Shown here one piece after another: positions 9,234-13,363 of a DNA stretch of 64,000 nucleotides; within the stretch, counting starts at the first letter, position 1, and every line of letters begins with the position of its first letter. The position numbers were made by a program, and so were the translations under genes. This stretch comes from Curvularia clavata (lineage: Eukaryota): NCBI GenBank assembly GCA_023920165.1, contig CP089274.1, positions 3,100,001-3,164,000 of the forward strand, in the 5' to 3' direction. The notes under the pieces are model-generated. The model was not told the origin of the DNA, did no database searches, and saw only the letters and a list, made by a program, of their open reading frames with translations.

Positions 9234-9649
9234 AAGAGACATCTGGTTTATTGCTTCAATTCGTTTTTTTTCTTCTCTTGAACTCTGCATTTTACACTTC
9301 TAGAACTTGGGGGCTTGCTGTTGTAATATTTGAATGACGACGATGATGACCAACGATGGATGAAGACGGGCGTGTAATATTAGGAACATACATATAATGT
9401 TCCTGTGACTGCTTAGATGGAGAAGGTTGCAACAGTATTTTTTAAGGCATGCCTGAGCATACAAGAGAACGATGTGTGAATTGAACTGAGTAGAAGTAGA
9501 AGAAAATATTGGGTATATAGGAGGCTTTACGCAGAAGCTCCTGTTGCTAGACGAAAAGAAGGGACAAAAGATTCGCTCGCTTTCTCCTGCCATTACGCAC
9601 ACCTTCGTCACCGAAGAAGTTTACCTCCTCTCACATCCCGCAGCACCAC

Positions 9650-10988
9650 TCAAGCCATATTCATCGTCTGCGCACACTCGGCCAACTCTGGCTTCTCACC
9701 TCCATAGCTCTTCGGCACATTCTTTCCCAACTCAGTCGCCAGCCTGTTCCCATCACTCAAGACGAAAAACTTCCTCGTCGTCTCCTTTGGCAGAACAAGC
9801 TTAATGGCGTTGAAAACCCAGCCCATCATCGCCGGCACGTTGACGAAGAACTTGCGGGACAAGGTCTCTGGGTAGTGAGCGCCGAGCGTCTCGATAGTCT
9901 TGTCTGTGGCTGCCTTGACGAGGGGATCACGTCGGATGAACGAGACTTGGAGGTAGTCGTGGATCTGGAAGCCCTGGTAGGGGTCTGGTCCTTCACCGTA
10001 GTTGGGGATGGGGGTTGTGGCGGTGGAGAGGGAAAGGGCTTGGACGGATTTCTCCATCAGGCCGACACGCCATCGGAGAAAGCTGTTATAATTAGAGACT
10101 TGTTAGCGTCATGCCCCTTTTCCATGTGTCTAGAAGAGATCCTAGGGGGAATTGAATAACTTACCCATCCAGATCGCCAAACGTGGCCTTGTTATCCTTG
10201 ACAGCGCCGTAGATGTTAAAGGTAGCAACATCCTTCTTGTTCGGGCTCTCAGGGACACCTTCAACTTCCAATACGTAGCCAAGTCCTTCGAACCGGCTCT
10301 TCTCGTACGTCTCGCCTGCAGCCTTGATCGGGTCGAATGTCTTCCTCCACTTGAGCGTCTCGAGGAGTTGCGCCTTTGCCTTTGTCAGGTCATTCTGGTT
10401 CGCGCGCAGGAACTTTTGCAGTATGAGCTTGGTGTGGAACGCGTTGGACTTGCTCAGCTCGATACCATAGACTTCGTTGTGTTGGGCTTCGGTGACGAGG
10501 GCCTCAAACGCGTCATAGAACTTTGTGAGGGGGTGTTCGGGCGCCGTTTCGGGCCACACGGGACCGTTGGTGGGTTCTACAGTGCTAGCTTCGGGCTTCG
10601 CGTCGCTTGCGGATGCGGCAGCGGGTGCTGTTGTGTCAACTGGTGCTGCTGCTTCTGTCTTGCTTTCCTCCTTGACTTCCTCCTGTTTCTCCTTCTCTTC
10701 CTCCTGTTTCTCCTTCTCTGCCTCCTTTTCCTCGGTCTCCTTCTTTTCCTCAACGTCCTTCTTCTCCTCCTCAATTTTCTTCTCCTCTTCTGGTTTCTTC
10801 TCAGCGACTGAAAGATCGGCTACTCCCGCAGTCGCGCTGTCAACAGCCTCTGTGTTCTCCTTCTTCTCGGCGGGCTCGGTGGGCTCGGCCGTGAGACCAG
10901 CTTCGGGCTGCTTCTCTGGCACAGCGTCATTGAGAAGCCCGGCACCCTGGGTGGCTATTGGGGTTGTTTCTTCTGGTTGCGCTGCCAT
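9650..10988 (-). CDS. SFH5: Phosphatidylinositol transfer protein Sfh5 (CRAL-TRIO)
   Basis: Exons 10988-10165 and 10082-9650. Motifs ILQKFLRANQ, FLRWRVGLME, QIHDYLQVSFIR and HYPETLSRKFFVNVP; acidic/Lys-rich N-terminus. Confidence 0.9.
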
Positions 10989-11498
10989 GTTGTGCTTGTA
11001 TCGATCTTCGTGAGTGCAATGCGCTGTTTGTACGGTGGTTTTGGAGATGTTATGAGGTGGACGGAAATCACACCATAATCTCCGAAACCGCAACCGTTAT
11101 ACGAACACGCGCGTTCACGTGCCCTCCACCAGCAATGGAAACATGCGTTACCAAACGATTCGAGTATGTAATGAGACTAGAGTAGACTAGATTGTTCAAT
11201 GGGCAATGGCACACTTGGAAAGATAATGCATACAATATTCTTATCAAGCTATGGACTTCTACGCTCGACAGTGTGATGGCGGTTGCCCATATCCCCCCTC
11301 TCTGACCCATGTCGATACTGCACGTACCCAGGCGCTTCTTGGGACCACCAATACAACAAAGCCGGGTAACTTGCTCTGAAATGACGGTAAGTCCCATAAG
11401 GCCGACATTAACAAAGCGCGACAAGCACTAAAACAATCTGTATCCTGATTAGCACAAACTCAAACTTATTACGTTGTGCAAGGATCAGAATAAAAAAG

Positions 11499-11589
11499 CA
11501 ATCAGTCGAAAGATGAAAAGTCTCGAAAAGTTTGTCAATCAGTGGGGCGAACCCCTCTGAGTTAGCATGAATTGGTGTTCATCATAGCA
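11499..11589 (-). ncRNA. Box C/D snoRNA (C), guide to LSU rRNA domain I
   Basis: C box ATGATGA 11585-11579 and D box CTGA 11505-11502. The guide CTTTTCATCTTTCGA directly abuts D and is complementary to 28S TCGAAAGATGAAAAG (15 nt, recalled consensus). Internal hairpin TCAG-A-GGGG-TTCG-CCCC-A-CTGA. Confidence 0.8.
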
Positions 11590-11741
11590 AATAGCAAGTA
11601 GAACAAAATAGATATTTACCTTTTGATCGAAAGCTGGTTGCTGAAAGTACTGAGTAATCAAGAACTAATTAGACATCTAGCATGGAGTCAGCGACATGTC
11701 CTCTGTATGTATGTTGCGACTGAGAAATGCATGTAGATAGA

Positions 11742-11818
11742 TATTCAGGTAATCGAACTAATTTGTTCCCCATGGGTAGGTCGGTATTTGATAATACACT
11801 TGATTGCTCATCATTGGA
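11742..11818 (-). ncRNA. Box C/D snoRNA (B), double guide (18S and 28S)
   Basis: C box 11814-11808. D' box CCGA 11784-11781 is preceded by the complement of 18S TATTTGATAATAC (13 nt). D box CTGA 11748-11745 is preceded by the complement of 28S TAATCGAACTA (11 nt). Confidence 0.8.
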
Positions 11819-12117
11819 GACTAGGTGTTGGGGGTGCCAAGGGGGTATTCTAACCTTTTCTACCATATCATAGCCTCACGAAGCCTTCCGCATACCACGC
11901 ACACTATATTGCTGCTTTCAAACACCTCGAGCCGTGGGCAGTGGATGCGCAGTACGTAAAAGGCTTCGTGAAGCTATGATAGGCGCGTCGCTACTAGACC
12001 GCGCCAGCGCATGCATTGCGCTCACAAACGGCGAACCATGGCAGACGGTCGAAACCTTTAGAACATGTTAGCAGTGATTCGTGAGAAACTTTTGCGCAAC
12101 AATTCGGTGAAGATTGA

Positions 12118-12198
12118 GATATCAGCAATCCCGTTTGGCTTGGGTGGTCGATCACCATAGAGTGTATGATAGGGGCGACACGTGTATTCATCATGATA
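12118..12198 (-). ncRNA. Box C/D snoRNA (A), snR60/U80-type guide for the LSU Gm908-equivalent site
   Basis: C box 12194-12188 and D box 12125-12122, C'-like GTGATC. Guide TCGCCCCTAT, complementary to 28S ATAGGGGCGA, is followed by a degenerate D' box CATA (12168-12165). Confidence 0.7.
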
Positions 12199-12486
12199 AT
12201 GACGGTGAAAAGGGAAAGGGGGAGGTGAACTTACCAAATGTTGCGTTGTGATGTAGAGAATGAGAATGGCTGAGCTCCAAGTTTTGTACGGGAACTTTTC
12301 GCGGCGGTTTTTTGTTTCGCCGGGCGGGAATGTGGTCCAAGCTTTTGCCTTAGCGTGGCTGTACCCATCGACGCGCTCGCCCGCTACTCTAGGTCGACAC
12401 TCACGCGCTTCCTTTCAACACCTCAACCCCACTCTCGCCGCGCCGAACCTCAACTTGCCGAACCTCACTAACTGCCGCCGTACATC

Positions 12487-13363
12487 ATGGTCGCCCCGAC
12501 TAGCGTATCCTTCGACGACTTCGTCAAGCAGACGAGGGAGAAGAAGAAGAACGAGGTCCTCGCCCAGCAGTTTCTGGGCGGTGGAAGCCGAGGACGGAAA
12601 ACTAACGCATCTGGCGCAGGCGCAAAGTCCCGTGTGGAATCCGAGAAGCCCTCTCTGCTCAGCCGAATCAACGGCGGCGCCGGCGTTCAAAAGCGATCAT
12701 CGAGTGCGAAGCCAGCCGGCAGCATCGACGGAAAGTGGCAGCACGATCTCCACAAGCTCAACAACCCCCGCGGTGCCAACAGCAGACACTCTCTTCCGCG
12801 CACGGCCTCTACATCGCAAGTAGAGCGTAACACGAAAGCATTCGACAAGTTCGCTTCTATCAACCGCAACGACGGAGCGGGTATTAGCATTCGCGGTGTT
12901 GCCAATGGCGGACCGTGCACTGTTATCGCAAGCAACTTTGCGCCTGGAACAACAGCTGCAGACATTGAGGCCGTCATGAGCCCCATTGGAGGAGAGACAC
13001 TGGGATGCAGGCTCTTGTCCGCGAGCCCAACTGTCATGGTAGAGCTGCAGTTTGCGACCAGGGAGGGTGCCGAAAACGTCATTGCGACATTCAACAACCA
13101 AAAGGTTAGCATATGTGACCATTGAAACGAGCGAGGCTAACACGATTGTCTAGGCCGATGGCAGGCTTCTCTATGTGTACATGAAGGACGTCCCTGCGAG
13201 CACTCATCAGTCGCTGTCCCGAGCACCTGCTCGCCTTACCCAGTCAGTCGACGACATGGACATTGATACTGGCGCACGGTCTGGTAGTTTCCAAGATGGT
13301 CGATACGGCTTCAACGAGGGTGGTCGTCGAGAACCGCCACGAGGTCCTCGCCGTCGCTACTAA
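12487..13363 (+). CDS. RRM-domain protein, probably nuclear/nucleolar RNA-binding
   Basis: Exons 12487-13104 and 13154-13363. RRM-like segment (TVIASNFAPGTTAADIE..ELQFATREGAENVIATFNNQKADGRLLYV), KWQHDLH motif, RG-rich tail. Confidence 0.75.

Follow-up and report, generated by a model that had tools for sequence, protein, structure and literature searches.

In Saccharomyces cerevisiae, snR67 and snR53 form an intronless unit that is processed by the RNase III enzyme Rnt1. The locus analysed here, a minus-strand cluster of three intronic box C/D small nucleolar RNAs (snoRNAs) in a 64,000-nucleotide (nt) stretch of Curvularia clavata (contig CP089274.1, positions 3,100,001 to 3,164,000, hereafter the window), has its closest described relatives in that unit and in the snoRNAs Nc CD26 and Nc CD11 of Neurospora crassa. 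The yeast unit is one of five yeast polycistrons, as given in passages of a preprint (bioRxiv 10.1101/352906), and passages of Liu 2009 (PMC2780460) describe five clusters conserved between yeast and Neurospora with UHG-like hosts, the N. crassa clusters I–V having non-coding hosts and some clusters including members that have their own putative promoters. Nc CD11, an intronic RNA of 79 nt, has the targets 18S-Am793 (as the snR53 homologue), U6-Am47 and, with 15 base pairs (bp), 26S-Am356, and Nc CD26 is intron-encoded, 77 nt long, and lies on the same chromosome (PMC2780460); we infer that the two form one of the six Liu 2009 clusters. Passages of Canzler et al. 2018 (PMC5824354) equate CD_26 with snR67 and CD_11 with snR53. 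According to the same passages, Dikarya retain the snR67 D′ target (yeast 25S-2619) in all but three classes, which switched to alignment position 25S-1898, the snR67 U2724 D guide is confined to Saccharomycotina, and snR53-type RNAs have a D′ guide for the A796-type site of small-subunit ribosomal RNA (SSU), to which Pezizomycotina add a D guide for the A356/359-type site of large-subunit ribosomal RNA (LSU).

At the C. clavata locus, an snR67-type unit lies directly upstream of an snR53-type unit on the same strand, as at 36 of 36 related loci with enough flank, and the locus singled out in a preliminary description of the window is this known fungal snR67-snR53 cluster and not a new kind of locus. 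It shares with the yeast unit the two flanking families in the same 5′-to-3′ order, the snR67-type D′ guide with a GCCAAAC-type accessory element, and the snR53-type D′ guide, and differs from it in having an intron for each snoRNA, a third snoRNA between the two, no U2724 snR67-type D guide, and an LSU A356-type D guide added in the third unit. With the N. crassa CD26/CD11 and UHG-like clusters it has in common the guides, one snoRNA per intron and short open reading frames (ORFs) in the host; however, the guides of its middle unit are absent from all 55 C/D sequences given for N. crassa by Liu 2009 (PMC2780460, Additional file 1), and its exons continue into a coding gene. The mammalian UHG and GAS5 genes likewise combine conserved intronic snoRNAs with non-conserved, ORF-poor exons, but they are stand-alone non-coding genes, whereas RNA contigs here join the exons to the coding exons of an SFH5-like gene. 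We consider it reasonably probable that the locus is the filamentous-ascomycete snR67-snR53 cluster and that its exons form a leader of about 660 nt of SFH5, not a separate hidden gene. The three snoRNAs themselves are real and conserved, and the locus is largely ordinary.

The layout was read from the minus strand together with RNA data, namely the assembled contigs of four public runs from four studies (X1, X5, X9 and X11) over positions 9600–13200, and comprises the following features.

12235..12412, minus strand: putative exon 1 and promoter region common with the divergent plus-strand gene, the contigs of which begin at 12413–12416
12056..12234, minus strand: intron 1 (179 nt, holds snoRNA 1), predicted from canonical signals and conservation
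12118..12199, minus strand: snoRNA 1 (~82 nt), C box 12194–12188, D box 12125–12122
11855..12055, minus strand: exon 2 (201 nt), non-coding, in spliced RNA contigs, 38–55% identical to close relatives
11862..11985, minus strand: long hairpin (~35 bp) in exon 2, from minimum free energy (MFE), shuffles and paired changes
11677..11854, minus strand: intron 2 (178 nt, holds snoRNA 2), joint 11676>11855 (CT..AC) in X1 and X5
11741..11819, minus strand: snoRNA 2 (~79 nt), C box 11814–11808, D box 11748–11745
11620..11676, minus strand: exon 3 (57 nt), non-coding, both flanking joints confirmed, 44–54% identical to relatives
11438..11619, minus strand: intron 3 (182 nt, holds snoRNA 3), joint 11437>11620 (CT..AC) in 4/4 runs of four studies
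11498..11590, minus strand: snoRNA 3 (~93 nt), C box 11585–11579, D box 11505–11502
11234..11437, minus strand: exon 4 (204 nt), non-coding, poorly conserved (21–40% identical to relatives), joined to exon 3 and to the start-codon exon
11187..11233, minus strand: intron 4 (47 nt), no snoRNA, joint 11186>11234 in X1, loose end in X5
10165..11186, minus strand: exon 5, a 198-nt leader followed by the start of the SFH5-like coding sequence (ATG 10988), from the ORF, its translation and domains

One box C/D unit lies in each of three consecutive introns of 179, 178 and 182 nt, which are unusually long compared with the other confirmed introns of the locus, as the nearby introns that RNA contigs confirm and that hold no snoRNA measure 47, 82 and 49 nt. 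Intron 1 has the donor GTAAGT, the branch site CTAAC and the acceptor AG, intron 2 the weak donor GTTAGA with CTGAC and AG, and intron 3 the donor GTAAAT with CTAAT and AG. The C boxes (ATGATGA) start at 12194, 11814 and 11585, at distances of 40, 40 and 34 nt from the donors, and the D boxes (CTGA) have their last nucleotide at 12122, 11745 and 11502, 54, 57 and 53 nt ahead of the branch adenosines, respectively. In all three units the C box is near the 5′ end and the D box near the 3′ end, at the spacing of about 70–100 nt expected of a box C/D snoRNA. Re-reading the minus strand returned the three long introns with one ATGATGA..CTGA unit each at the coordinates and spacings reported before, and the earlier statement that the exons contain no credible ORF agrees with a longest upstream ORF of 57 amino acids after splicing. 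The box pattern by itself is common, since ATGATGA occurs 22 times in the window (both strands), eight times with a CTGA 55–105 nt later, and three of these eight pairs are the snoRNA units of this locus. Those three stand beyond chance because of their splicing, guide complementarity and conservation.

The contig joints show that introns 3 (182 nt skipped), 2 (178 nt) and 4 (47 nt) are spliced, the last also supported by the loose end of X5 at 11186, where 10 letters equal window positions 11234–11243; the 82-nt intron of the coding sequence (joint 10082>10165) was spliced in 4/4 runs. Of the splice junctions expected for the three snoRNA introns, those of intron 3 (4/4 runs) and intron 2 (2/4) were thus recovered, and that of intron 1 was not seen. 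In X1, unspliced contigs also cross introns 3 and 2 (11410–11884, minus strand) at a depth of 35–38 vs. 80–87 for the spliced form, that is, about 40%, and none were found for the 82-nt coding-sequence intron; slow splicing or retention of the snoRNA introns may account for this.

The downstream minus-strand gene encodes CRAL_TRIO_N and CRAL_TRIO domains, consistent with the SFH5 label given to it earlier. Contig X1-1 (2157 nt; 9600–10082, 10165–11186 and 11234–11439) extends from its coding exons through exon 4 to the intron 3 acceptor, and contig X5-15 (11219–11437, 11620–11676 and 11855–12056) joins exons 4, 3 and 2. From exon 2 to the ATG, the spliced leader is ~660 nt long and contains 13 upstream ATGs. 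Leader and coding-sequence junctions have depths of 80–87 vs. 85 in X1, and of 49 vs. 61 in X5, although contig depth is a poor measure. The simplest reading is a single transcription unit, probably with a proximal SFH5 start beside it. The notion of a hidden non-coding host gene holds only in part: the exons are ORF-less, but the contigs splice them to SFH5-like coding exons, so that in this genome they seem to make up, or at a minimum to overlap, the SFH5 leader; where a stand-alone host would give RNA that ends without coding sequence, the contigs join exon 4 to the SFH5 exons, although unphased.

The guides were tested on ribosomal DNA (rDNA) of L051 in an anchored manner, the duplex starting at most 3 nt from the box and covering position 5, with 300 shuffles per guide. 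Antisense stretches of at least 10 bp beside D or D′ were obtained for the unit 3 D, unit 2 D′, unit 3 D′ and unit 1 D′ guides, and the earlier claim of three intron-encoded box C/D snoRNAs with rRNA-complementary guides, one per intron, is supported.

SnoRNA 3 consists of the D′ guide TTCATGCTAAC, a small internal hairpin, a C′-like TGATTGA and the D guide CTTTTCATCTTTCGA. Its D guide forms a perfect 15-bp duplex with LSU TCGAAAGATGAAAAG (0/300 shuffles reach it), and its D′ guide pairs over 10–11 bp with SSU GTTAGCATGGA (5/300). These targets are both those of Nc CD11, 18S-Am793 and 26S-Am356, and the printed Nc CD11 sequence has the D′ guide core in common with unit 3 and a wholly identical D guide. 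By its guides, snoRNA 3 is assigned to the snR53/Nc CD11 family. A second CTGA (11488–11485) was set aside as its D box, as all 59 homologues have CTGA right after the guide, a feature that was itself part of the search pattern.

SnoRNA 1 has the D′ guide GTGTCGCCCC, a C′-like element TGGTGATCGA and the accessory element AAGCCAAAC. Without anchoring, GTGTCGCCCC pairs with the LSU P-loop stretch GGGGCGGCAC, which is the yeast 25S-2619 site, and AAGCCAAAC pairs with the neighbouring LSU GTTTGGCT. Comparison by eye with the printed Nc CD26 revealed a shared D′ guide with the following UAUCAUACAC, the block UAUGGUGAU, and AAGCCAAACG. The three-nucleotide spacer ahead of D′ agrees with the Rfam snR67 consensus, and the weak Rfam alignment of the unit to snR67 (below) spans both conserved elements. 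On these resemblances, snoRNA 1 is placed in the snR67/Nc CD26 family. As a further observation, the D′ guide (12160–12185, minus strand) forms 10 bp with each of two LSU sites having GGGGCG, the P-loop and a G908-type site, and homologues keep the TAT behind CCCC by which the second pairing is lengthened. This two-site pairing resembles an intermediate stage of the target switch treated in the passages of Canzler et al. 2018 (PMC5824354), where alignment position 25S-1898 is, we infer by arithmetic on the coordinates given there, the G908-type site.

SnoRNA 2 carries the D′ guide GTATTATCAAATA followed by CCGA, and the D guide TAGTTCGATTAC followed by the D box. With SSU TATTTGATAGTAC the D′ guide forms a duplex of 13 bp, a length that 2/300 shuffles reach, and the D guide forms 9 bp with LSU TAATCGAAC on fungal-like LSU fragments. 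Homologues of the unit read GGTTCGATTAC, which extends the LSU duplex to 10–12 bp as read off the sequences. Two other D targets were set aside, namely an SSU site that needs two G-U pairs and an LSU site beside the unit 3 target, the conserved GGTTCGATTAC fitting LSU TAATCGAACC best. The unit had no Rfam match in the window, nor any at E up to 0.05 across 12 related loci, no counterpart was present in the A. fumigatus table passages of the literature, and the guide strings were absent from searchable full paper text, supplements lying outside that search. Nc CD39 was rejected as its N. crassa counterpart, having a different guide aimed five nucleotides away. Judged by its two conserved guides, snoRNA 2 is a conserved third snoRNA that is not assigned to a named family.

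To assess conservation, metagenomes were searched for the 19-mer made up of the unit 3 guide and D box, which gave 103 matches, of which 80 were fetched. CD11-type snoRNAs made up 59 of the 80, representing 56 distinct loci, and the other 21 were an unrelated bacterial-looking gene or chance matches; the same 19-mer occurs in an apparently bacterial conserved coding sequence in L084, L091, L106, L122, L123, L125, L129, L132, L143, L151, L159 and L160. Gene order was counted in the 36 distinct metagenomic loci whose upstream flank spans 950 nt or more. The unit 1 guide TGTCGCCCC was present in 36/36, 303–897 nt upstream, and the unit 2 D guide GTTCGATTA in 22/36, at −225 to −317, with both unit 2 guides in 16/36; loci without unit 2 have a two-snoRNA spacing. 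The unit 1 C box is preceded at 31–70 nt by a strict donor motif in 34/39 loci vs. a base rate of 0.075, and the unit 1 D box is followed by a branch-like motif plus AG in 39/39. Aligning 38 distinct sequences of unit 1, 28 of unit 2 and 52 of unit 3 shows conservation concentrated on boxes and guides, the motifs that picked the sequences being conserved by construction. The three closest loci are 82–94% identical to the window in the snoRNAs, 41–68% in the intron flanks and 21–55% in the exons, which is the pattern predicted in advance, with boxes and guides conserved and exons not. The region 12235..12412, with 60–74% identity to three close relatives, lies above any host exon.

Exon 2 contains the long hairpin listed above, which has an MFE of −94.1 kcal/mol (z-scores from two sets of shuffles, −6.9 and −4.8) and ends ~8 nt ahead of the weak GTTAGA donor of intron 2. 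The hairpin was found in L101, L139, L090 and the L085 group, and was absent in L105. In a five-sequence alignment, 91% of cells pair vs. 34–47% with the partners slid, and nine pairs are changed on both sides, a count that 2/500 shuffles reach. Structured exons (z below −2) occur at 9/24 loci vs. 0/22 control segments and in two clades only, the second of which (L099/L135) has a different hairpin; the cluster as such does not generally come with a structured exon. The Rfam family MIR2950 was rejected for the hairpin as a shape match only, at 32 bits vs. a cut-off of 76.

A pathway consistent with this layout would begin with transcription of the unit by RNA polymerase II from a promoter region that also serves the divergent plus-strand gene. 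Each small nucleolar ribonucleoprotein would assemble on its own intron, and splicing, debranching and exonucleolytic trimming would leave RNAs of ~80–93 nt. Unit 1 would guide 2′-O-methylation of the LSU P-loop G (yeast G2619 site) and possibly of the G908-type site too, unit 2 that of an SSU U near position 121 and of an LSU U 14 nt downstream of the G908-type site, and unit 3 that of the SSU A796-type and LSU A356-type sites. The exons would serve as a disposable carrier, ORF-less and fast-evolving.

Several results weigh against this picture of the guides and of a single unit with SFH5. At the gathering score, Rfam has 0 matches in the window, with weak matches below the cut-off, and for 12 related loci it has none for any unit at E up to 0.05. 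The snR67 model (RF01177) scores 18.1 bits on unit 1 (E = 0.79) vs. a cut-off of 55, so that the Rfam search suggested earlier gave nothing at gathering and did align unit 1 to snR67 at permissive thresholds; two further leads, snoZ159 and SNORD18, were rejected with E above 7. For unit 3, snR53 (RF00338) gave no row among matches at E up to 10, and the best match was Afu_263 (RF02402; 30.3 bits, E = 0.051, half the gathering cut-off), which has a short guide stretch resembling the unit 3 D guide and was rejected as the family of unit 3, since Afu-263 is an snR60 homologue with the 26S targets Am815 and Gm906. In the anchored test, the unit 1 D′ guide reaches 10 bp with LSU ATAGGGGCGA, which is marginal (30/300 shuffles reach it), and on the L051 rDNA no significant target was obtained for the D guides of unit 1 (254/300) and unit 2 (64/300). 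The rDNA consisted of eukaryotic contaminant contigs in bacterial assemblies, found with the LR0R primer, and is not from this species. Only L051/L057, L023, L041 and L050 span a whole rDNA unit, and the fungal-like contigs L019, L043 and L048 end inside the LSU 5′ half; searches of the same five assemblies for the LSU 3′ half returned only bacterial 23S-like matches or short pieces. A D guide of unit 1 without a target is accounted for by the confinement of the U2724 D guide to Saccharomycotina. On the RNA side, only X11 is recorded as RNA and the other three runs are guessed to be so, all of this evidence coming from assembled contigs of long-RNA runs. No joint of intron 1 was present in any of the four runs, all of which have zero depth over 12141–12382. 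As to SFH5, the host junction depth in X9 was 2.6 vs. 17.9 for the SFH5 junction, about 15%, which suggests that many SFH5 mRNAs start elsewhere; translation from a leader with 13 upstream ATGs and a ~35-bp hairpin should be poor; and a contig across two genes is no proof of a single molecule.

The alternative that survives best keeps the same snoRNAs and places them in a separate non-coding host that ends in or just after exon 4, with SFH5 having its own start within exon 4 or downstream of it and the contigs merging two overlapping transcripts; we regard it as possible, and clearly less probable than a leader of SFH5. One argument for it comes from related loci. Eight loci keep the order divergent gene, cluster, SFH5. 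A tandem SFH5, on the strand of the cluster as in the window, occurs in L090/L118, L101 and L139 (SFH5 80–87% identical), and the gene is convergent in L105 (73–77%) and in L085, L114 and L124 (61–63%), its C-terminal end lying 533–706 nt after unit 3; the host must therefore be a separate unit in those four loci. Viewed across lineages, the SFH5-like gene has been inverted while the divergent upstream gene and the cluster have stayed put, and the join of host and SFH5 in the lineage of the window is probably secondary. The non-coding, UHG-like hosts in the passages on N. crassa clusters I–V, a leader hostile to translation, the low host junction depth of X9, and the inability of de Bruijn contigs to phase distant exons point the same way. 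Against it, exon 4 and the start-codon exon are joined by splicing of the 47-nt intron in X1 and, by its loose end, in X5, X1-1 runs unbroken from the coding sequence to the exact intron 3 acceptor, leader and coding-sequence junctions have almost the same depth in two runs of separate studies (X1 and X5), and the three closest relatives match the window in the orientation and distance of SFH5.

A bolder combination, in which an ancient stand-alone host was captured as the SFH5 leader after the inversion of SFH5, the exon 2 hairpin is an RNase III site and the middle snoRNA represents an undescribed family, strikes us as unlikely when all its parts are taken jointly. If it were true, SFH5 output would be tied to a promoter of the ribosome-biogenesis type and throttled by the 13 upstream ATGs. 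The hairpin, which as an RNase III entry site is a matter of speculation, would admit an enzyme of the Rnt1/Pac1/Dicer type as a working relic of yeast polycistronic processing, and would either free the snoRNAs without splicing or destroy the leader-bearing transcript. The middle snoRNA would then specify two fungal rRNA methylations absent from yeast.

Still less probable is a unit 1 that is not intronic at all and either has its own promoter or forms the 5′-most part of the primary transcript, the mature host RNA then beginning near 12056. In its favour, 4/4 runs are without any contig over exon 1 and intron 1, contigs stop at 12056 (X5, X11) or 12051 (X9), with the X1 stop at 11998, and clusters with members having putative own promoters are described in the passages of Liu 2009. 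However, GTAAGT, CTAAC and AG stand at the same geometry as in the two confirmed introns, the donor motif recurs in the 34/39 homologous loci far above its base rate, and two runs stop exactly at the acceptor, like a fork between spliced and unspliced forms and not like a ragged start. Taken alone, the stops at 12056 and the missing depth over 12141–12382 are at most a weak hint about intron 1, which we take to be probably spliced. That the boxes are chance motifs in ordinary long introns making no snoRNAs, as the eight suitably spaced pairs in the window and the lack of an Rfam gathering match might suggest, is hardly to be entertained given the anchored rRNA complementarity of 15 and 13 bp, the conservation of boxes and guides over dozens of divergent loci with diverging flanks, and the direct likeness to the cloned N. 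crassa CD26 and CD11.

For annotation, the consequence of the favoured SFH5-leader reading and of the three snoRNAs is that ORF-based pipelines will miss three conserved snoRNAs and will likely mis-model the 5′ end of SFH5. The biological gain is modest: the snR67-snR53 cluster persists, with one snoRNA per intron, over many uncultured fungi, and a third snoRNA is present in the cluster at roughly 60% of loci. The tandem and convergent arrangements of SFH5 form a natural pair for the effect of a non-coding snoRNA host running into a coding gene, and the conserved exon hairpin may have a role in the processing of snoRNA hosts.

Some minor observations concern the neighbouring genes and the material searched. 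The divergent plus-strand gene has a 49-nt GT..AG intron (13103–13151, plus strand) that was spliced in 4/4 runs. Its first exon (12487–13101) had no Pfam match at E up to 0.001, which leaves the RRM label once attached to this neighbour unconfirmed. Many bacterial assemblies and metagenome-assembled genomes contain eukaryotic, partly fungal-like rDNA contigs, evidently as contamination (L019, L043, L048, L053, L051/L057 and others). At 10676, in the Glu/Lys-rich, low-complexity N-terminal region of the SFH5-like protein, the contigs of X1, X5 and X9 are without 21 bases of the window, which amounts to an in-frame length polymorphism.

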